From NCBI GenBank assembly GCA_018606645.1, contig JAGVRI010000016.1, positions 16,790 through 80,789 of the forward strand: DNA of 64,000 bases, written 5' to 3'. This DNA comes from Chloroflexota bacterium (lineage in GTDB: Bacteria; Chloroflexota; Anaerolineae; JAAYZQ01). The notes below the pieces were generated by a model. That model was not told the origin of the DNA. It searched no databases and saw only the letters and a program-made list of their open reading frames with translations. Of the stretch, positions 392 to 38,411 are shown in pieces (within the stretch, counting starts at the first letter, position 1; each line of letters begins with the position of its first letter). A program made the translations under genes and the position numbers.

Positions 392-745
392 GAAGAGGCG
401 GCGGACCTCGTCTTTAGTCAGGACGGTGGGCAAGCGCCGGGGCCGTTTGGTCAAAAAGACAGGGTCAGTCTCTTTATATAAAGGACTTTACCGTAGAGCG
501 GGCGAAGCGCTGCTTCGCCCCTACAGGGCCTGGTTCTGGTTGGAAGCGGCGACGTGCTCCTGGACGGCCAGATAGGTGAGGAAGGCTGCGACCTGCGGTG
601 CGCCCATTTCGGCGGGGTGGCGTTTGCCGTGGAAGAGGATGTAGCGGGTGATCCAGTGGAGATAGGCCTGCTCGGTGCGGTAGGAGTAGTGTTTGACGCG
701 CAGGGCGTCGCGTACCTGGTCAAGCAGTTTTTTGGGTGGGTTCAT
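392..745 (-). pseudogene. intI: Integron-type tyrosine recombinase (IntI-like) remnant: N-terminal SAM-like domain only, interrupted by stops, catalytic domain missing
   Basis: 521..745 encodes MNPPKKLLDQVRDALRVKHYSYRTEQAYLHWITRYILFHGKRHPAEMGAPQVAAFLTYLAVQEHVAASNQNQAL then TAG; the same frame resumes with RPRRLPTVLTKDEVRRL (450..392) after 24 codons holding TAG and TAA; nothing resembling the catalytic domain follows. Confidence 0.7.
493..524. repeat. REP-like palindrome (GTAGGGGC..GCCCCTAC family) inside the intI remnant
   Basis: GTAGAGCGGGCGAAGC-GCT-GCTTCGCCCCTAC; its right end read on the minus strand (GTAGGGG) supplies the TAG that ends the IntI frame. Confidence 0.6.
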
Positions 746-763
746 GGGCGGATTTCCTTTCAT

Positions 764-792
764 TTGACAGAGTTCGCGCTTTGTTCTATAAT
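764..792 (+). promoter_or_regulatory. Pc-like sigma70 promoter pointing into the cassette array
   Basis: TTGACA (764..769), 17-nt spacer, TATAAT (787..792): perfect consensus, just upstream of and opposite to the intI start. Confidence 0.55.
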
Positions 793-899
793 GAAAGTGC
801 TTCGTCTCAAACGAGTTGTGAAATAGGTCCAGTGGGCCTATTATACGGGGGTTCTCCGTAAAAGCAACTGCAAGGGGGGCTAGGTCGAATCCGTCCAAG

Positions 900-947
900 A
901 TACTGAATCAGCGGTAAAGGTGGATTCCGTATACTGAATAGTTAGGT
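900..947 (+). other. Putative attI region: two direct repeats followed by a GTTAGGT core
   Basis: ATACTGAAT at 900..908 and 931..939, then GTTAGGT at 941..947 (GTTRRRY type); the position between intI and the first attC matches attI layout. Confidence 0.4.
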
Positions 948-972
948 CGGACGCTTCGCTCCGCTTGCGTCC

Positions 973-1013
973 GACCTAATGGGGCGGCGGCTGTTCCCAT
1001 CCGCCAGTTAGGC
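973..1013 (+). repeat. Short attC-like palindrome (ORF-less unit)
   Basis: GACCTAAT ... GTTAGGC with partial internal pairing; no ORF between it and the preceding GTTAGGT core. Confidence 0.3.
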
Positions 1014-1036
1014 GGCTAGCTCGCTCCGCTCGCGTC

Positions 1037-1120
1037 CGCCTAACTGGCGGATGGAGCCGACCCTTGCGTCGGCGCTGACGCGCCTCCGCCACGGGCGGCT
1101 CATCCGCCGCCCCATTGGGC
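1037..1120 (+). repeat. attC-like site preceding the Mrr cassette
   Basis: CGCCTAAC-TGGCGGATGGAGCCGAC ... GGGCGGCTCATCCGCC...ATTGGGC; the inner arm GAGCCGAC/GCGGCTC is shared with the other attC sites; the R' core has A instead of G. Confidence 0.5.
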
Positions 1121-1151
1121 GCTGTAGGCAACGTGAGGAATGAGGTGGCAT

Positions 1152-1958
1152 ATGCTGCCAAAACAACGGGAAGTGGAAGTGCCTCTCTTGGAAGTCCTAG
1201 TAGCCTTGGGCGGTGAAGGCAGGCCCAGTGACATTTACCCTCTGGTCACACAAAAGTTCCCCCAGATTCGTCATGAGGATCTTCTGAAAACCTTGCCTTC
1301 CGGTGGCAACAGGTGGACCAATCGGATTCAGTGGGCAAGACAGACGCTTGTTACGAAAGGGGAGATGGACAGCCCAGGCCACGGGATATGGCGAATCACC
1401 GAGAAGGGGTGCCAAAGGCTCGGACAAGTCACAGCAGGTAAGCCACAGGCACCTATGGTAAGTTTTACGGAGTTGTACGAGGAATATGAAGCCTCATTCC
1501 GCTCTCGCTTGCTTGACATACTGCAGGGTCTATCGCCTACTCAGTTCGAGCAGTTTGCTCAGAGGCTGCTCAGGGCATACGGCTTTGTGGATATGAAGGT
1601 CACTCAGAGGTCAAGGGATGGCGGTATAGATGGGTATGGCAAGCTGCGATTGGGTTTGGCAACGATGAATGTGGCGTTCCAGTGCAAGAGATGGCAGGGG
1701 AATGTCGGACGTCCTGAGGTAGACAAGTTTCGAGGGGCGATCCAGGGCGAGTTTGAGCAAGGTGTGTTTTTCACCACTTCTGACTTTACACCTGAAGCCA
1801 GGGATGCTTCATTGAAGAAAGGAGCTGTGCCGATAATTCTTCTCAACGGGGAGAGCATTGTCAACTTGATGATTGAGAAGGGGCTTGGCGTCGAGCGACT
1901 CCCCTTGTATATCTATTATGAGCGGCCACGAGACTTTGCAGAGGACGAGGAGATTTGA
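1152..1958 (+). CDS. mrr: Mrr-family restriction endonuclease (integron cassette 1)
   Basis: N-terminal Mrr_N-like winged helix (EVLVALGGEGRPSDIYPLV...RIQWARQTLVTKG) and C-terminal Mrr_cat PD-(D/E)xK core (DGGIDGYG...AFQCKRW...FFTTSDFT); ATG at 1152 after GAGGTGG. Confidence 0.85.
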   Translation: MLPKQREVEVPLLEVLVALGGEGRPSDIYPLVTQKFPQIRHEDLLKTLPSGGNRWTNRIQWARQTLVTKGEMDSPGHGIWRITEKGCQRLGQVTAGKPQAPMVSFTELYEEYEASFRSRLLDILQGLSPTQFEQFAQRLLRAYGFVDMKVTQRSRDGGIDGYGKLRLGLATMNVAFQCKRWQGNVGRPEVDKFRGAIQGEFEQGVFFTTSDFTPEARDASLKKGAVPIILLNGESIVNLMIEKGLGVERLPLYIYYERPRDFAEDEEI

Positions 1959-1972
1959 TAACTGCAATGAGT

Positions 1973-2051
1973 GGCCCAACTCGCCGCATCAGCCGACACG
2001 CTCCGCTCGCCTCGCTCGCTCCGCGTGCGGCTGAGCGGCAGATCGTTGGCC
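1973..2051 (+). repeat. attC-like site of the Mrr cassette
   Basis: GGCCCAAC-TCGCCGCATCAGCCGAC-(loop)-GCGGCTGAGCGGCAGATC-GTTGGCC; the arms pair imperfectly with unpaired bases. Confidence 0.65.
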
Positions 2052-2092
2052 AGGCCAAAGTAGTATTCTAGCCACCGTGGAGGGCATCTCGC

Positions 2093-3472
2093 ATGCTAAG
2101 CAAGAAACTCCAGATTGTGAGCGTGATTCCCTTGATAATGCTCTTGGGATCCGTTCATGTCAACGGGGCGTTCAATGGTTCGGGTCACCAGAGATACACC
2201 AACCCACAACGTCCACAAGATGCGTGCAGCCGTCCACTATACCACACGAATGGAACGCCGTTGTACTATCGGGATCACTGCCCCGCTCCAAACAACATTA
2301 TCCCGCTAGAAGATAATCCACCAAGCGATCGATTTGAAGCAGCGCATGTTGCCTACTCTACCGGTGGATCGTGGGTGGAAGCTGTCTCAATGGACGATTT
2401 TGACCGGGACGGGAAGCTCGATATGGTAGTTAGCACAAGCTATTACCTTGACCCTTTGCGCGATCAACGGGTCTGGGTAGCCAGGCAAGATACCCCTTTG
2501 AGCTTTAGCCTAGTGCATTCGGCTACCATCGGAGCGCTCAGCCCGACTTCCCTTGACGTCGCCGATATGAACGGTGACGGCTACTTGGACATAGTCGTAG
2601 CTAATGAGCAGGTAGAGGTCGGCGACGAAGGTGACGTAAGGATTTTCTGGGGCACGGGGGATTTCAGCTTCATCCGCACCGATCATACCGCTGGTAACAA
2701 CCCGTATGCGGTAGCCGTCATACCAGTCTATAACAACTATACCAGAACGTTGGCGGTAGTGACCAACGTGCTTAGTGATTTTCTATCAAGTTATCTAGGA
2801 GAGACTGGTTACTCCGTGACGAGGACTGACTACTTGGCCCCGCAAGCGGGGTTCAATCAGTTGGCAACGGGCGACCTGAACAACGACGGCAACCAAGATA
2901 TTGCGGCCATGTGGGGCCAATTGGATGATGCGGCCTTCACCGAATATTTTGGGGACGGACAAGGGAGCTTGAGTGTCGGACCGAGTTTCCCCAAACACGA
3001 TCGGAATCCTACGGCGATTGCTGTAGGGGATGTCACAAATGACGGGCGCGACGACGTTATCATTGCGCGTGGCAGCAATCGGCCTTATGTATATGTCTTG
3101 GTATACGCCCAGGACCCAACAGGCCACCTTGCATTGACTGCTACGTATCCGTCGTTCGACATGCCCGAATCACTGGATGTGGCTGACGTCAATTGCGATG
3201 GGATCAATGATCTCATCGCAACCAATTCTGGCTGGTTTGCGTTCAGTTGGTGGCCGGGAAAACCCGACGGCACTCTTGGCCTATACCAGATCGAATGGCA
3301 CTCGTTCTATTTCAGTCACGTTGGCCCCAACGGCGCCGAGATGGCGGACGTAAATGGGGATGGGTTGAAGGATTATGTCGTGGTAGACTATAATGTTAAT
3401 GGCGTCTTGGTTGCGCTTCAGCGGCCGTGTTTTAAGAACAAGTTGTACCTGCCGTTGATCATCAGCAAGTAG
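2093..3472 (+). CDS. Secreted FG-GAP/VCBS repeat (integrin-alpha-like beta-propeller) protein (cassette 2)
   Basis: Signal peptide MLSKKLQIVSVIPLIMLLGSVHVNG; repeated DxDxDG Ca-binding-type motifs (DFDRDGKLDMVV, DMNGDGYLDIVV, DLNNDGNQDIAA, DVTNDGRDDVII, DVNCDGINDLIA, DVNGDGLKDYVV). Confidence 0.8.
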   Translation: MLSKKLQIVSVIPLIMLLGSVHVNGAFNGSGHQRYTNPQRPQDACSRPLYHTNGTPLYYRDHCPAPNNIIPLEDNPPSDRFEAAHVAYSTGGSWVEAVSMDDFDRDGKLDMVVSTSYYLDPLRDQRVWVARQDTPLSFSLVHSATIGALSPTSLDVADMNGDGYLDIVVANEQVEVGDEGDVRIFWGTGDFSFIRTDHTAGNNPYAVAVIPVYNNYTRTLAVVTNVLSDFLSSYLGETGYSVTRTDYLAPQAGFNQLATGDLNNDGNQDIAAMWGQLDDAAFTEYFGDGQGSLSVGPSFPKHDRNPTAIAVGDVTNDGRDDVIIARGSNRPYVYVLVYAQDPTGHLALTATYPSFDMPESLDVADVNCDGINDLIATNSGWFAFSWWPGKPDGTLGLYQIEWHSFYFSHVGPNGAEMADVNGDGLKDYVVVDYNVNGVLVALQRPCFKNKLYLPLIISK

Positions 3473-3514
3473 TCATCCCATATGAACTCAGTTTGGCTTT
3501 ACAGGTGGGAAATA

Positions 3515-3581
3515 GCCTGCTGACTTCTTGCTCCAGCTGACGCCGCCTGCGGCGGCGCGGCTGAGCGGCAGATCGTTAGGC
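3515..3581 (+). repeat. Degenerate attC-like site of the FG-GAP cassette
   Basis: Right half GCGGCTGAGCGGCAGATC-GTTAGGC matches site 1973..2051 up to the R' core; the left arm (AGCCTGCTGAC...TGCTCCAGCTGAC) pairs only partly. Confidence 0.45.
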
Positions 3582-3614
3582 GGCGAGAGCGTAAATACCT
3601 GGGAGGAGCCCAAA

Positions 3615-4139
3615 GTGAAGAAAAAGGTGGCTGCATTCATCTTGCGGACACAGACACAGGGAGGCATCGGTCTCTTACTGCATTCCTTTGCCGATGCTCC
3701 TTCTATACCAAGACGTGTCCCAGGGGGTGGTGTCTATTCTGAGGAGACACCCGAGCAAGCTGTCTATCGTGAAGTCCTTGAGGAGACGGGCCTAGCGCAA
3801 ATACAGTTGGTGCGCAAGCTAGGAGTGCAGCATTGCTACAAGCCCTACATACAGGCAGATGTCGAACGCCATGATTTCCTGTTTCGTATACCAACTGCGG
3901 CCCCAGACACCTGGGAATATCAGGTCAAAGGGAAAGGGGCAGATGCTGGGGAAGTCTTCCAGTACCATTGGGTTACAGCCGACCAGCTAGACCGCATTGA
4001 TATTGATGAGGAATACCGTCGGTTTATCACGCCTGACTATCTTCCAGAAATGTTCGAATATTGCCTACCAGCGTCGCCGCCCAACCCGCCGCTTCAGCCG
4101 ACACGCTCCGCTCGCCTCGCTCGCTCCGCGTGCGGCTGA
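3615..4139 (+). CDS. NUDIX hydrolase (cassette 3)
   Basis: Nudix box GGGVYSEETPEQAVYREVLEETGL; GTG at 3615 preceded by GGAGGAG; the stop codon lies inside the attC site. Confidence 0.8.
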   Translation: MKKKVAAFILRTQTQGGIGLLLHSFADAPSIPRRVPGGGVYSEETPEQAVYREVLEETGLAQIQLVRKLGVQHCYKPYIQADVERHDFLFRIPTAAPDTWEYQVKGKGADAGEVFQYHWVTADQLDRIDIDEEYRRFITPDYLPEMFEYCLPASPPNPPLQPTRSARLARSACG

Positions 4140-4156
4140 ACCGCAAACCGTTAGGC
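4078..4156 (+). repeat. attC-like site of the NUDIX cassette
   Basis: CGCCCAAC-CCGCCGCTTCAGCCGAC-(loop)-GCGGCTGAACCGCAAACC-GTTAGGC; its 45-nt core is identical to site 1973..2051. Confidence 0.65.
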
Positions 4157-4175
4157 GGCTTTACGGAGTACAACT

Positions 4176-5033
4176 ATGAAGGGAGAATGGTCGAGCGTCA
4201 CTGCGCAGGGTATCGCTGCCATTAGGGCAATTGAATCGAGCAGACCACCCGAGCAGAGGATTTGTTACGATCCCCTTGCTCGTCAGCTAGTTAGCCCGGT
4301 GTTCTATCTTCTGGCTAAGCTATTTTGGAGATACGGAGAATGGAGAGCGCCGGGCACAACGGGGTTCATAGTCGCCCGCGCCCGTTACATTGACGATTAT
4401 CTACAAACCTGCCTCGATGGCGGAATCGACCAGTTGGTGATCTTAGGGGCGGGGCTGGATTCCAGGGCTTACCGCTTCGAACAACTCAGAGAGCACGTGA
4501 AAGTGTTCGAAGTAGATCATCCAGCAACACAGCAGGAAAAGTGCAAAAGACTTAGGAGGATCTTCGACGAGCTTCCCAAGTATGTGACTTTCGTTCCAAT
4601 TGATTTCAACGAAGAGAGCCTGGAAAAACTATTCGATTTCGGATTTGACAAACAGTGGAAGACTCTATTCATTTGGGAGGGTGTTACCTACTACCTGACA
4701 GCGGAAGCGATGGATAGTACTCTGGAATTCGTGGTGAGGAATTCAGAGGAAGGCAGTTCCATCATCTTCGATTACGTGCATGTCTCAGCCTTGACGGCCG
4801 CCCATAAGCGCGGAGAAATTGCTCGTATGCAGCGGTACGGACGATTCACCGGAGAGCAGTTGATATTCGGGATCGAAGAAGGAAAAGTGGTGGAATTTCT
4901 TAGCCAGCGCGGGTACACCCAGATCGTGAATGTAACTAGCGAGGATCTCAAAAGAGCGTATTTCACTGGCGTCAACCAGAATAGGCCCATTGCGCCCATC
5001 TATGCCATTGTCCATGCCACAGTGAAATCATAG
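4176..5033 (+). CDS. Class I SAM-dependent methyltransferase, leucine carboxyl / O-methyltransferase (TIGR00027-like) family (cassette 4)
   Basis: VILGAGLDSRAYRF SAM-binding motif and EVDHPATQ, typical of the LCM/Omt family. Confidence 0.8.
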   Translation: MKGEWSSVTAQGIAAIRAIESSRPPEQRICYDPLARQLVSPVFYLLAKLFWRYGEWRAPGTTGFIVARARYIDDYLQTCLDGGIDQLVILGAGLDSRAYRFEQLREHVKVFEVDHPATQQEKCKRLRRIFDELPKYVTFVPIDFNEESLEKLFDFGFDKQWKTLFIWEGVTYYLTAEAMDSTLEFVVRNSEEGSSIIFDYVHVSALTAAHKRGEIARMQRYGRFTGEQLIFGIEEGKVVEFLSQRGYTQIVNVTSEDLKRAYFTGVNQNRPIAPIYAIVHATVKS

Positions 5034-5044
5034 GATCAGACCGC

Positions 5045-5114
5045 CGCCTAACATCGCGTCGAGCCGACCGCCCTCCGCTACGCTCCGGGCAGCGGCTCAC
5101 GCTCACCGTTAGGC
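5045..5114 (+). repeat. attC-like site of the methyltransferase cassette (last in the array)
   Basis: CGCCTAAC-ATCGCGTCGAGCCGAC-(loop)-GCGGCTCACGCTCACC-GTTAGGC. Confidence 0.6.
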
Positions 5115-5207
5115 CCTTGTCGCCGGAGGTGATGAGAGGCGGGGAGGCAGGGCGGTGGGGCCTCCGCTCCGGTCGTCATTAGCCGGGGTATCATGGTCCA
5201 ACCATGT

Positions 5208-5474
5208 TCACCCAAGGTGGGCCAACTTCGGGAGGTACCGCCATTCCCAGATGCGGTGATGGCCGAGCACCTCTTCTCGCGAGTAGCCGCTGATCCGTTC
5301 GGCCACCTTGTTCCAGAGGACGATATTGAGCTGCGCGTCGAGGACATTCAGCCAGATGTTGGCATTTTCGACGATGCTGTTGGATAACTGGCTCAAGGCG
5401 CGGACGGAATGGCCTGCCTGTGGATGGGCAGACAACTGCCAAGCGGATGAGTGGCCGTTCATCGTCGTTTCCAC
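5208..5474 (-). pseudogene. PAS-domain sensor fragment (truncated)
   Basis: ENANIWLNVLDAQLNIVLWNKVAERISGYSREEVLGHHRIWEW is a PAS core; the ORF is only 88 aa with no output domain. Confidence 0.5.
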
Positions 5475-5518
5475 CGTCCCTGCCTCACCCTGAACCCAGG
5501 ATGCCGGATGACCATCGC

Positions 5519-5824
5519 ATGGTTCTCCCCTTGGGGCAAGTCGGGCGGCGTGATGATAAGGGTGCGCAAGCCCTCGTCTACGTCATTCGCCGTAGCACCG
5601 ACCGGTCATTTGACCGTGCCAGACTGGCGAAAGGCGGGGAAGGATACAGCTCGCCTCTGGAGCGAGACCCCCAGCGGGTCCTTCAGGCCGTGATCAACGG
5701 CTATGTCTCCGTCGCCTGCGCCCGGAACGAGTACGGGGTCGTGATCCACGAATCGGAGATGGAGATCGATTGGGAGGCGACGCAAAAGCAGCGAGAGCAG
5801 ATGCGCGCCTCTCAGGGAGGGTAG
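5519..5824 (+). pseudogene. Hydantoinase B/oxoprolinase (HyuB) C-terminal remnant
   Basis: GGEGYSSPLERDPQRVLQAVINGYVSVACARNEYGVVI matches the conserved C-terminal end of HyuB-type enzymes; the roughly 450 upstream residues are absent. Confidence 0.45.
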
Positions 5825-5828
5825 GACG

Positions 5829-6266
5829 GTGACGGTGCGGCTCCGATTCACCTTTGCCCGAGGGGGAGCACTGATCGCCGATCTATTGCCGACCGCCGCG
5901 CCCAGGACGATCGAGCGGGTGTTGGAGATACTGCCGTATGAAACGATCGTCTATCACACCCGCTGGTGCGGTCGGGAGATCAACTTTCCGATCCGCTGTC
6001 GCAGACCAGTCCCTCGGGAGAATCAGACGGCGACGCCCAACACCGGCGACGTGGTCTATTGGAAAGAATGGGAGATGGACGAGAGTCCGCCGGAAGCGCT
6101 GGCCATCTACTACGGAGCGGAGGTGATCCGCGATCATCGCGGCTTTCTCCCGGTCAACCGCTTCGCCCATATCTCGCAGAACCAGTGGCCCCTGATCGAA
6201 GAGATCGGGGTGCGGGTGTGGCAACGAGGGATCGAAACGATCTACGTGGAGGCGGTGGAGGACTAG
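5829..6266 (+). CDS. Cyclophilin-like fold protein (DUF3830-like)
   Basis: 145-aa ORF with GTG start 5 nt after the hyuB remnant; the motif NTGDVVYW...ALAIYYG resembles cyclophilin-like DUF3830 proteins; family call from memory only. Confidence 0.5.
   Translation: MTVRLRFTFARGGALIADLLPTAAPRTIERVLEILPYETIVYHTRWCGREINFPIRCRRPVPRENQTATPNTGDVVYWKEWEMDESPPEALAIYYGAEVIRDHRGFLPVNRFAHISQNQWPLIEEIGVRVWQRGIETIYVEAVED

Positions 6267-31099: not shown

Positions 31100-31103
<4 letters not shown>
30798..31103 (-). CDS. Short DUF45/YgjP-like (M48/WLM-type) zinc metallopeptidase
   Basis: RKWASCSSQGRLTFDTDLL...VIVHELLHLKVPNHG (HExxH); 4-nt overlap with the hsdR stop. Confidence 0.75.
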
Positions 31104-34101
<2,998 letters not shown>

Positions 34102-34105
<4 letters not shown>

Positions 34106-34782
34106 GGTTTGTCCTCCTGTGACCGTGGGGGCGAAGACAAAGCAGGGGCGAACAATCTTTCGCCCCTGCGAGCTGCCCCTGCGGGGTTGTGGATCATCTC
34201 CCAGATCTCCCGTGCCAGTGGATCCTCGCCGGTGCGTTCGGGGTTGTAGCGGTCCAGGTGCCACCGTAAGGGGTTCTCATCAATGTAACGGCGAATGGCG
34301 TCCAGGGCGCGTTCGTCGCGGATGATGTGTTCGTAATAATTGCGTTGCCAGACCGGCGCGCCGGGGGCGTTGCGCAATTCATTGATGCGTTTGGTGACGC
34401 CGGATTTGAACGATCGGACGATGGCCCCCACCGACCCGGGAACGACATTGGCCGGGGGCGTGGTGAATGAAGGGGCGCAGCGGCGCTGCGCCCCTACGCC
34501 ATCCCCCACAATCCAAATCATGCCGTGGATGTGGTTGGGCGTAATTACGAGTTCATCATCGCATAATTGCACATACGGGCGGATTTGGCCGGTTTTGAAC
34601 CATTCATCGCGCACGATTTCGCCCCATTCATTCAACCGCATCTCCCCATCCACCACCGCGCCAAACAAGTACGCCCGCTCGTGCGTGCAAATGGTGATGA
34701 AATACGCGCCCGGTTGGGTGTAATCGTAGCCCGGCAAGCGGATGGAACGGCGATGATAGCGATTCGGGTCATAGTGGGTCAT
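34102..34782 (-). CDS. REP-associated tyrosine transposase (RAYT, IS200/IS605 Y1 HUH family)
   Basis: HUH motif NHIHGMIW and the Tyr motif WQRNYYEHIIRDE; single ORF without tnpB or IS ends; overlaps the hsdS stop and the hsdR start. Confidence 0.8.
34142..34169. repeat. REP-like palindrome variant inside the RAYT 3' end (in frame)
   Basis: GCAGGGGCGAACAATCTTTCGCCCCTGC encodes RRGERLFAPA. Confidence 0.55.
34469..34497. repeat. REP-like palindrome inside the RAYT gene (in frame)
   Basis: GAAGGGGCGCAGCGGCGCTGCGCCCCTAC encodes VGAQRRCAPS. Confidence 0.65.
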
Positions 34783-36143
34783 CAGGCGTCCTCGTGGGCC
34801 TCAAAGCCGGCAACGAAAGCAGGCGGCAGGCGGCGCCGGGCGGTCATCAGCTCATGCAACAAGGTCTTGAACAGGTCCCCCAGCGCGCGGGCATAGGCCT
34901 CCTCGGCCTGGATGCGCCGATCCACCGCCTGCAGAATACGCGCAATCTCCCGCTGCTCGGCGATGGGTGGGAGGGGGATAAGAAGGTTTTGCAGGACAGG
35001 GATGTTAATACCGAGTTTTAGCCGTCCACCCTTGCTGCTATTGATCTGGTCCCAATAGGTTCTTGTATCTGTGAAGAACGATAGGAAGTCAGGCAGAAGG
35101 TTTTCGTCAGATAGAATTCGAATTCGGATCAAGTACGAAGCGAATATTGCTGGCGGGCACTCGTCAACAAGAAACGTTTTTCCTGTGGTAGCCCCGATAC
35201 GAGCCACAAGTATATCGCCAGGTTTTAAAGTGTATTTCTCAATTTCGGATTGGGTTATTTCGCAGAAAGGAACTGATGACCAAATCACCTTGCCACTTTG
35301 GATGTCTGTAATACGCAAGAACTTTGGGCCTATAGGAAAAACAGAGGCGCTGGCGGTATAACCATACTGAGGTCTTTCCATCACCTCCCCCAACCGGACC
35401 ACCTGCCAATGTTCCGGGATGGGGCCGATTTCGGTCTCGCGTAGGGGCACAGCGCGCTGTGCCCCTACCCCTATGGGGACCGGCCCATAGGTGAAAAGAT
35501 GGTTCATGAGGCTGCGCTTGAGGTCGCGCAGCGCGGCGATGACCCGCTCCGTGGCCTCCTTTGCCTCCTGCACCGTCCGCAGCACGTGCGCAATCGCCCG
35601 CTGCTCGGCAATGGGTGGGAGGGGGATGGGCACGCTCAAAAAATCACTTTTCCGAATAGCTCGCCTACGGTTAACGGCACCAGAAGCAAAACGATTATAC
35701 ACTGCTATTGCAGCTGGCATCCGCAGAAGGGGATCAACAAACAAAAAGTCTGCTTTGTCAGATTTGACCTCCCAGACTGGGTAAACTGGGCTAACAAGTC
35801 CAGCGTTGTATTTGCTAAGAGCATGAACAGCCCCTTCCCAAATTACATAAGGATTATTTACGATTTGCCCACGAAGAACAACCTTGTATTCGCTAACATC
35901 TTCTGTTGCAATACGTTTGCCAAACCGTTCTGTTTGCAAAATAAGCCCGTCATTCTTTGTTAACGACAATACGGGTAACTCTTGGTCAACTTTTTCCAGG
36001 TCCTTATAACGAATATCAACCTCACTAAGCACCTCCCCCAACCGGACTACCTGCCAGTCTTCGGGCAGGGGACCGAGTTCGGTGTCGCGTAGGGGCACGG
36101 CATGCCGTGCCGCTACGGGCAATCCGTTCGCCTTAGCGCTCAT
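34782..36143 (-). CDS. hsdS: Type I R-M specificity subunit
   Basis: Two-TRD layout with duplicated conserved segments (PEDWQVVRLGEV / PEHWQVVRLGEV; PLPPIAEQRAIA / PLPPIAEQREIA); start MSAKANG at 36143. Confidence 0.9.
   Translation of the reverse strand: MSAKANGLPVAARHAVPLRDTELGPLPEDWQVVRLGEVLSEVDIRYKDLEKVDQELPVLSLTKNDGLILQTERFGKRIATEDVSEYKVVLRGQIVNNPYVIWEGAVHALSKYNAGLVSPVYPVWEVKSDKADFLFVDPLLRMPAAIAVYNRFASGAVNRRRAIRKSDFLSVPIPLPPIAEQRAIAHVLRTVQEAKEATERVIAALRDLKRSLMNHLFTYGPVPIGVGAQRAVPLRETEIGPIPEHWQVVRLGEVMERPQYGYTASASVFPIGPKFLRITDIQSGKVIWSSVPFCEITQSEIEKYTLKPGDILVARIGATTGKTFLVDECPPAIFASYLIRIRILSDENLLPDFLSFFTDTRTYWDQINSSKGGRLKLGINIPVLQNLLIPLPPIAEQREIARILQAVDRRIQAEEAYARALGDLFKTLLHELMTARRRLPPAFVAGFEAHEDA
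35441..35468. repeat. REP-like palindrome inside hsdS, second half (in frame)
   Basis: GTAGGGGCACAGCGCGCTGTGCCCCTAC encodes VGAQRAVPL. Confidence 0.7.
36089..36116. repeat. REP-like palindrome inside hsdS, N-terminus (in frame)
   Basis: GTAGGGGCACGGCATGCCGTGCCGCTAC encodes VAARHAVPL. Confidence 0.7.
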
Positions 36144-36480
36144 CGGCGATTTCCTCCAGCAAGCGCGCCATCTGCTCACGCAAAAGCGGCACCTCTTGCG
36201 TTGCCGTCACCCAAACGATACGCCAATCCACCGCAAAATACTCATGAACCGCAATGTTGCGAAAGGCGACAATATCCGGCCAGGGGATTTCGGGATGCTG
36301 CTCCGTGAAGGTCCTGGGCAGGCGAGATGCTGCCTCGCCGATGACGATGAGTTTCTGCAACACAGCGCTCTGTCGCAGCTCATCCTGCATGAAGGCGGTT
36401 TCATCCACACCTTGCAAGAAACGGGCAATGGCGTCGGCGGCCTCTACAATATCCGTCAGATACAGTCGCTCAGGCCGCAT
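36133..36480 (-). CDS. hepT: HepT-like (DUF86) RNase toxin, type VII TA
   Basis: Rx4HxY motif FRNIAVHEY; 115 aa; overlaps the MNT gene by 11 nt and the hsdS start by 11 nt. Confidence 0.85.
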   Translation of the reverse strand: MRPERLYLTDIVEAADAIARFLQGVDETAFMQDELRQSAVLQKLIVIGEAASRLPRTFTEQHPEIPWPDIVAFRNIAVHEYFAVDWRIVWVTATQEVPLLREQMARLLEEIADER

Positions 36481-36765
36481 AGATCACCTGTTCCTCGCGC
36501 AAGATGGCATCCCGAATGGCGGGCTTGAGCCCATTGCGTGGCACCAGGTCTACTGACCTCCCCAACAAGCTCGATAACTCCCGTGCCATCCGGCTCAACG
36601 TAAGGAAGCCCACCTGTGCCTCTGGTTCAAACTCCACCAGAATATCTACGTCGCTGTGCGGACCCAAGTCCTCGCGGAGCACGGAACCGAACAGAGAAAG
36701 CCGACGTACCTGGTAACGACGGCACAGTTCCGCCAATTCCCGTTTAGGAGTGGATAACGCAATGC

Positions 36766-36769
<4 letters not shown>
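36470..36769 (-). CDS. mntA: MNT nucleotidyltransferase antitoxin
   Basis: GSx10DxD motif FGSVLREDLGPHSDVDILV; 99 aa; its ATG overlaps the hsdM stop (ATGA). Confidence 0.85.
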
Positions 36770-38361
<1,592 letters not shown>

Positions 38362-38411
38362 CGAGGCCCTTTCTCCTTGTTCTCCCTGACGAGGTATCCC
38401 GCTCAACTAAC

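Follow-up and report, generated by a model that had tools for sequence, protein, structure and literature searches.

Does a short integrase-like fragment that points away from a row of functionally unrelated genes, each with an imperfect palindrome at its end, represent an integron, and if so, in what state? The question is raised by the first 5 kb of a 64,000-nucleotide stretch of DNA (GenBank assembly GCA_018606645.1, contig JAGVRI010000016.1, positions 16,790 to 80,789), subsequently referred to as the window, from an uncultured member of the Anaerolineae (Chloroflexota). An earlier note, made from the letters of this DNA, had read the locus as an integron with a dead integrase gene, and the match to an attC model, the match to the integron-integrase family, the divergent layout and the lower GC content of the array were all found as that reading predicted. 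The locus is very likely a chromosomal integron in which the integrase gene (intI) has been destroyed, with the promoter, the insertion site (attI) and six cassettes remaining. Such a state, a dead intI beside a retained platform and cassettes, is known and fairly ordinary for integrons.

A truncated integrase gene

The intI pseudogene occupies positions 386-745 on the minus strand and corresponds, in a single frame, to integron-integrase residues 1 to about 118. The open reading frame (ORF) at 521-745 on this strand encodes 74 amino acids, the first 74 codons of the integrase. Its product matches PF13495 (Phage_int_SAM_4, E 3.8e-24) and positions 1-68 of the 315 positions of the NCBIfam integron integrase TIGR02249 (E 4.6e-23), in agreement with the N-terminal SAM-like domain of an integron/Xer-type recombinase that had been proposed for this ORF. 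A second segment of the pseudogene matches TIGR02249 positions 92-113 (E 0.004). The TIGR02249 score of the remnant is 82 bits against a cutoff of 265, and a profile search of the remnant region gave no match to the catalytic domain PF00589. Full-length IntI proteins from four other loci (L083, L092, L090 and L140) align by tblastn over residues 3-118 in one frame, running from 733 to about 377, with 50-67% identity.

Translation of this frame places in-frame stops at 521-523 and 488-490. The pseudogene frame reads ...AASNQNQAL-stop-GRSSASPALR-stop-SPLYKETDPVFLTKRPRRLPTVLTKDEVRRLF, after which similarity is gone; the last similar stretch ends in ...LPTVLTKDEVRRL. The lesions of the gene thus comprise two stops, a diverged stretch of about 25 codons and the absence, from about residue 120, of about 200 codons that would encode the catalytic domain together with the insertion specific to integron integrases. 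Within 220 nt of the remnant, at 165, the next minus-strand gene starts; it has a ribosome-binding site of its own and, at its N-terminus, a hydrophobic stretch resembling a signal peptide. A tblastn search with full-length IntI found no other integron integrase encoded in the 64 kb of the window.

Identification of the attC sites

Rfam contains no attC family, and an attC covariance model was therefore built independently from sites outside the window. The first model (R1) was based on four 60-nt class 1 attC sites from the integron estX-psp-aadA2-cmlA1-aadA1-qacL of plasmid NZ_CP023143, with a structure comprising R-box, L-box and loop pairing plus two single-base bulges. An alignment of class 1 sites of unequal length with MAFFT had mis-aligned the 3' arm, and for this reason R1 was confined to the four 60-nt sites and widened by iteration. 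A total of 2463 plasmid records match the aadA1 attC sequence over 80% or more of its length, and 1962 match it with an identity of at least 99%.

With filters off, R1 detects the window sites at 5046-5114 (33.6 bits, E 2e-7) and 3518-3581 (29.2 bits, E 5e-6), both on the plus strand. It was also run on 82 loci, consisting of 80 GTDB loci fetched with the IntI fragment of the window and two class 1 plasmid regions, and found 64 sites at E < 5e-4. Fifty of the 58 sites outside the class 1 regions lie on the strand opposite intI, all but one of these upstream of it, which is the layout seen at the window locus. A second model (R2) was built from these 64 sites, none of which comes from the window. 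Searching both strands of the whole window with filters off, R2 gives exactly five matches at E < 0.01, all on the plus strand: 5046-5114 (50.2 bits, E 1.5e-10), 4079-4156 (41.2 bits, E 3.5e-8), 3518-3581 (37.5 bits, E 3e-7), 1974-2051 (29.1 bits, E 5e-5) and 1038-1120 (20.7 bits, E 0.0076). The matches that follow have E > 0.4; most are these same sites read on the reverse strand, and the others are noise.

The palindromes that had been taken for attC sites are thus scored by attC models, all five by R2 (E 1.5e-10 to 8e-3) and two of them by R1. As a negative control, R2 was applied to 1.245 Mb around tilS in 80 genomes and gave one match, itself in a cassette array. The heptamer GTTAGGC occurs four times in the 64 kb, always between 1007 and 5114. 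A genome-wide scatter of the palindromes, which the earlier note had named as speaking against an integron, was not observed: within the window the five sites are confined to the array, and elsewhere the type lies in co-oriented attC arrays. A scan with Rfam gave no match at the gathering score; a sub-threshold match to mir-339 at 980-1079 was set aside as a chance resemblance to the palindrome.

Structure of the attC sites

The palindromes are 64-83 nt long, imperfect, and bounded by RYYYAAC...GTTRRRY. The cores of the sites at 4079 and 5046 fit the R''/R' consensus letter for letter, and the R' of the site at 1974 (GTTGGCC) is one letter off GTTRRRY; all three retain the AAC/GTT cleavage triplets. 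In the site at 1038 the R' is ATTGGGC, with ATT replacing GTT at the cleavage position, and in that at 3518 the R'' is degenerate (TGCTGAC), the AAC being lost.

When the bottom strands are folded as DNA, the R box and the L box each form a stem, separated by an unpaired spacer, and the 3' arm of the L-box stem has two bulges of one base each, for example G-T-CGGCTGA-T-GCGGC. The bottom strand is more stable than the top strand by 2.2 to 6.9 kcal/mol (bottom minus top -2.2 to -6.9) in the four sites compared, and GC skew is negative in four of the five top strands. Sites of the attC kind are described as having extrahelical bases close to L'', a central spacer that stays unpaired, a terminal loop, and a bottom strand that is enriched in purines and the more stable of the two (PMC5027507), and the folds, strand stability and GC skew of the window sites agree with these. 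The imperfect pairing of the inner arms described in the earlier note resolves into two single unpaired bases on the R''-L'' arm, and the conserved extrahelical bases it expected in the bottom strands are seen. These unpaired bases stand in an ...AGCCG-A-C context, in which the L'' box is letter-identical with those of the aadA1, aadA2 and cmlA1 attC sites.

The sites at 1974 and 4079 represent a 78-nt attC type, a 20-mer of which (AGCCGACACGCTCCGCTCGC) is found in 42 GTDB contigs, mostly of Chloroflexota. In the stretches of these contigs around the 20-mer, R2 gives 80 matches in 259 kb, which within a locus are nearly always co-oriented (14 in L192, 7 in L176). Most copies are 74-78 nt long; their loop is nearly invariant and their L-box stems differ by compensating changes, and the same near-invariance among Chloroflexota arrays holds for the 29-nt pyrimidine-rich loop of the two window sites. 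In an alignment of the type, pairing holds in 92.5% of cells and both partners have changed in 17 of 22 pairs, values that none of 500 shuffles and no slid register comes near, although the alignment was fitted by the model and is biased towards the structure by construction. The co-oriented arrays and the compensating changes together tie this attC family to cassette arrays and not to a dispersed genomic repeat.

The 74-78 nt type with the loop ACGCTCCGCTCGCTTCGCTCGCTCCGCGT (loci L165-L206) is found mostly in Chloroflexota, with further examples in the isolate Calidithermus roseus and in bins assigned to Cyanobacteria, Verrucomicrobia, Planctomycetota and other groups; for the short contigs mis-binning is possible. 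In C. roseus NBRC 110900 (L167:3157-4076) the integron-integrase match is split in two frames, covering residues 5-63 and 67-316, which suggests a frameshifted intI beside an array with this attC type.

Promoter and attI

The earlier note had named a cassette promoter (Pc) and an attI without giving coordinates, and both can now be placed. The candidate Pc lies at 764-792 on the plus strand (TTGACA-17-TATAAT) and agrees with the sigma-70 consensus at 12 of 12 positions, the sole such match between 300 and 5400. It faces the array and starts 19 nt past the intI start codon. A second promoter-like site (TTGTGA-17-TATTAT) follows at 816-844 on the same strand; its -10 box, CTATTATAC, is found at the same place in the related platforms L233, L234 and L237.

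The attI at 853-947 on the plus strand contains the conserved blocks TCCGTAAAAGCAAC and GAATCCGTCCAAGA and the core GGATTCCGTATACTGAATA followed by GTTAGGT. It aligns, with 77% mean column identity, to the segment that separates intI from the first cassette in Chloroflexota integrons with an intact intI (L140, L090, L223, L237), and in others. It shares with these the core GGATTCCGTAYAMTSAATA followed by GTTRGG. This alignment places attI, with the crossover predicted between G941 and T942, and by homology to the same relatives the locus appears to have the attI next to intI, ending in GTTRRRY, of a complete integron. For attC clusters that have no integron integrase (CALIN), attI and promoter are rarely identifiable, and for environmental integrons attI is usually unknown; unlike most CALIN, the window locus has both in recognizable form.

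Cassettes

Cutting the array between G and TT of each core gives six cassettes. The four-cassette array proposed earlier holds for the cassettes that carry ORFs; the total is raised by two ORF-less mini-cassettes between attI and the first ORF. Mini-cassette 1 (942-1007, plus strand, 66 nt) is bounded by GTTAGGT (941) and GTTAGGC (1007). It contains a hairpin at 940-980 (-16 kcal/mol, z -6.7) and a 41-nt attC relic at 973-1013 that is unscored by R2. Mini-cassette 2 (1008-1114, plus strand, 107 nt) carries the attC at 1038-1120, with the mutated R' ATTGGGC in place of GTTRRRY, and is associated with a perfect 19-bp inverted repeat (997-1015/1036-1054). The palindrome that had been noted at 1037-1120 ahead of the first ORF is therefore genuine, and is assigned here as the attC of this mini-cassette and not as attI. 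The two mini-cassettes are homologous to one another, and the interval 940-1054, between attI and the first scored attC, holds two homologous hairpins in R'-to-R'' order, here read as mini-cassettes, whose loops bear the CGCTCCGCT motif of attC loops.

The four remaining cassettes each carry one plus-strand ORF, and profile matches confirm the functions that had been suggested for these. Cassette 3 (1115-2045) encodes an Mrr-family type IV restriction endonuclease (ORF 1140/1152-1958, attC 1974-2051) with the Pfam domains Mrr_N and Mrr_cat; in PADLOC the protein matches mREase_IV (E 3e-28) and the candidate system PDC-S02 (E 5e-37). Cassette 4 (2046-3575) encodes an FG-GAP repeat protein (ORF 2093-3472, attC 3518-3581; FG-GAP_3, E 3e-29), the N-terminus of which has a hydrophobic segment resembling a signal peptide. 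Cassette 5 (3576-4150) encodes a NUDIX hydrolase (ORF 3615-4139 with a GTG start, attC 4079-4156; NUDIX, E 3e-18). Cassette 6 (4151-5108) encodes an S-adenosylmethionine-dependent methyltransferase of the LCM/TIGR00027 family (ORF 4176-5033; 245.6 bits against a TIGR00027 cutoff of 93.55), and its attC (5046-5114) is the last and forms the end of the array.

A GGAG-type ribosome-binding site precedes the start of each of the four ORFs by 4-8 nt. The attC begins 15 nt after the stop of the Mrr ORF, 45 nt after that of the FG-GAP ORF and 12 nt after that of the methyltransferase ORF, and the NUDIX stop lies inside its own attC; these distances bear out the description of a palindrome overlapping each ORF or following it within about 45 nt. 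Homologues of the four cassette proteins were absent from the 237 loci fetched.

Genomic context

The impression that the array is richer in AT than its surroundings is supported by measurement, the GC content being 0.541 for the array (942-5108), 0.638 to its left (1-745) and 0.610 for the rest of the window (5115-64000). Genes for tilS, DUF881 and TldD/PmbA nearby indicate a chromosomal context. The best TilS identity among GTDB genomes is 68-69%, and no conspecific genome was found. In the 80 loci fetched with TilS, none of the four cassette ORFs was found at a distance of up to 10 kb from tilS. The earlier note had named syntenic core genes in related genomes as an outcome against its reading, and this result is a weak test of that, given a best TilS identity of 68-69% and no flanking synteny. 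The single control match mentioned above belongs to a cassette array 4.9 kb downstream of tilS in Anaerolineae bacterium AMR_MDS_4610 (L019:15700-17414), oriented relative to tilS as in the window, on a contig that ends before any intI is visible. It may reflect a shared chromosomal neighbourhood for integrons of this lineage, or coincidence.

On the distal flank of the array there is a minus-strand PAS-domain fragment of 88 amino acids (5208-5474). The flank also has an ORF that matches no known family (5420-5824) and precedes a DUF3830 gene (5829-6266). This arrangement suggests truncated genes at the outer edge of the array (5115-5824). A reading of the ORF at 5420-5824 as the C-terminal remnant of a hydantoinase B was dropped, as it has no Pfam match even at E 10. 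Further into the window, a type I restriction-modification system is encoded on the minus strand at 31100-38406 (HsdR 31100-34264, HsdM 36766-38406).

Comparison with other integrons

Integrons have already been reported in Chloroflexi, and attC clusters without an integrase are common (PMC4889954). In the survey of Cury et al. (2016), intI pseudogenes were found near 15 of 279 CALIN, and loss of the integrase was listed as one origin of CALIN (PMC4889954). Under the definitions of IntegronFinder, the locus agrees with a CALIN that has an intI pseudogene next to it. Five attC sites lie on the plus strand with gaps of 854, 1467, 498 and 890 nt, where at least two on one strand with neighbours less than 4 kb apart are required, and within the 64 kb window only the N-terminal remnant of intI is found; the CALIN-like state put forward by the earlier note, which presupposes several attC sites on one strand and no intact intI, is supported. 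The adjoining remnant and the absence of antibiotic-resistance genes among the cassettes are further points of similarity to CALIN (PMC4889954). As in a complete integron, attC sites lie near intI (five, at 290-4370 nt from its start), but the intI lacks both PF00589, the catalytic domain, and the C-terminal insertion specific to IntI. The count of five compares with more than 19 attC sites, or presence in all genomes of a species, for a sedentary integron in Cury et al. (2016). The locus also differs from the CALIN pseudogenes of that study in that the search there required the C-terminal IntI profile; the window keeps only the N-terminal third of the protein, and such a remnant would therefore be missed.

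The closest counterparts are Chloroflexota integrons with an intact intI. In L140 (Chloroflexia H63_651) and L090 (Anaerolineae H27_366) the IntI N-terminus is 51-60% identical to that of the window, and the attI core, GGATTCYGTAYAMTSAATA followed by GTTRGG, lies about 140-200 nt from the intI start in all three. The divergent arrangement of intI and cassettes is common to the window, L140, L090 and L237 (Anaerolineae PO_4). These relatives have full-length integrases (347 amino acids in L090, 351 in L140, a full-length match in L237), whereas that of the window is truncated, and in them attI leads straight into an ORF cassette, whereas in the window two ORF-less mini-cassettes come first.

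The attC sites resemble the class 1 sites of aadA1, aadA2 and cmlA1 in their R'' (RYYYAAC), R' (GTTRRRY) and unpaired central spacer, and in an L'' of the form ...AGCCGAC with an unpaired top-strand A (T in the bottom strand) and another unpaired base 6-7 nt closer to the R box; R1, built from four class 1 sites, finds two of them. They differ in being longer (64-83 against 60-70 nt), and two have the 29-nt pyrimidine-rich loop. In host, integrase clade and cargo the locus is unrelated to clinical integrons. Like sedentary chromosomal integrons such as the superintegron of Vibrio cholerae it is chromosomal, carries non-resistance cargo and has attC sites that resemble each other within the lineage, but it has only five of these and a dead integrase.

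Discussion

The arrangement can be accounted for by the established integron model. An intact integrase would have inserted circular cassettes singly at attI, with the crossover between G941 and T942, the partner of attI being the folded bottom strand of the attC hairpin of each cassette. Recombination of this strand would set every ORF pointing away from intI and downstream of the platform promoter, and so accounts for the shared direction of the ORFs and for where each attC lies. Later, we infer, two in-frame stops and a deletion eliminated IntI beyond residue about 118. With intI destroyed, the array could no longer be rearranged by a locally encoded enzyme and would have become a fixed block of two ORF-less and four ORF-bearing cassettes, probably transcribed from the consensus promoter at 764-792. 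The decayed cores of the sites at 1038 (R' ATT) and 3518 (R'' TGCTGAC) and of the 41-nt relic (973-1013) fit a relaxed constraint that would have followed the loss of the integrase. The sites at 1974, 4079 and 5046, with intact core sites, could still serve an integrase supplied from elsewhere.

This last point leads to an alternative in which the platform is still in use, its promoter, attI and cassettes being served by an intact integrase encoded elsewhere in the genome, so that the local loss of intI did not freeze the array. Integrases encoded at other places could act on CALIN cassettes and move them (Cury et al., 2016; PMC4889954), and three attC cores of the window are intact. The window attI is conserved (77% mean column identity with its family), although the selection of attI matches by an exact-match pattern builds part of this conservation into the search. 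The family of platforms defined by the attI core described above includes JGI metagenome contigs (L207-L232) and GTDB bins (L233-L237). Among about 19 JGI contigs with the core and at least 400 nt upstream, only one has a full-length intI (L223); fragments, often N-terminal like the window remnant, are present in about nine, and intI is missing from about nine more, which counts for this alternative. The GTDB bins, however, have an intact intI adjacent to attI in three to four of five cases; the idea of several attI copies per genome sharing one integrase was also examined, and the GTDB scan gave one copy per genome and hence no sign of such sharing. The 64 kb window contains no second intI, and core decay affects two attC sites and the relic. 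On balance, a platform still in use seems unlikely.

Some contigs of the family have unusual arrangements: in L227 an intI fragment (2133-2477) is situated on the same side of attI as the cassettes, with its reading direction towards attI, and L212 and L218 each have two attI-like copies. Platforms of this kind may be tandem or rearranged. It is a speculative and rather improbable extension that the Chloroflexota promoter-attI platform is commonly kept after integrase loss as a stable expression or docking site, perhaps served by an integrase from elsewhere, and that the near-invariant 29-nt attC loop might bind a host or integrase-associated factor.

A second alternative, that the integrase is intact in the organism and that the stops and truncation are artefacts of assembly or binning, is very unlikely. 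The source is evidently metagenome-derived, and exact-protein look-ups returned only short window-identical contigs from one sample (Logan SRR16588181). These short-read contigs (L081, L082 and L238) end at 761, 4110, 2005 and 3512, three of the four ends lying inside or at the edge of attC repeats, as is expected where the assembly graph branches at repeated attC sequence. One of them, however, the 900-nt L081, runs from 761 leftwards past position 1 and so spans the intI remnant and the left flank; in the intI fragments and at the start of the neighbouring gene, its protein sequence is the same as that of the window. The lesion is also more than a single error, with two stops, about 25 diverged codons, about 200 lost and the next gene within 220 nt. 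That the palindromes belong to a genome-wide repeat family, such as repetitive extragenic palindromic (REP)-like elements or terminators, with the intI fragment adjoining by coincidence, can be dismissed almost entirely, since, although they are G+C-rich hairpins after ORFs, as terminators and REP elements often are, all five are packed into 4 kb by the intI remnant while the remaining 59 kb has none, they are matched by models that were derived from bona fide attC sites, their type occurs elsewhere in co-oriented attC arrays, one beside an integrase gene (C. roseus, L167), and no T run follows any site, the terminator scan being blank there.

A chromosomal integron with a destroyed integrase gene is therefore preferred, and several points weigh against it. 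Stand-in models took the place of the attC model and intI_Cterm profile of IntegronFinder, and the E-values of R2 are rough, its calibration having been shortened. The attC at 1038-1120 is the weakest of the five (E 0.008), and its assignment comes partly from context. The promoter consensus is of the E. coli sigma-70 type, its activity in a Chloroflexota host being assumed. The nearest genomes, at 68-69% TilS identity, are too distant to show gain or loss of cassettes at the locus. Since SRR16588181 may be the same sample, its agreement with the window is not independent proof of the intI lesions.

The locus leaves the general understanding of integrons unchanged. It provides a well-resolved example of integron decay outside the Proteobacteria, in which the intI remnant, promoter, attI and cassette boundaries are placed to the nucleotide. 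The type IV restriction enzyme encoded by the first ORF cassette would, judging from its family, likely have an anti-phage role. The attI consensus and the 78-nt attC type could aid the annotation of integrons in Chloroflexota metagenome bins.

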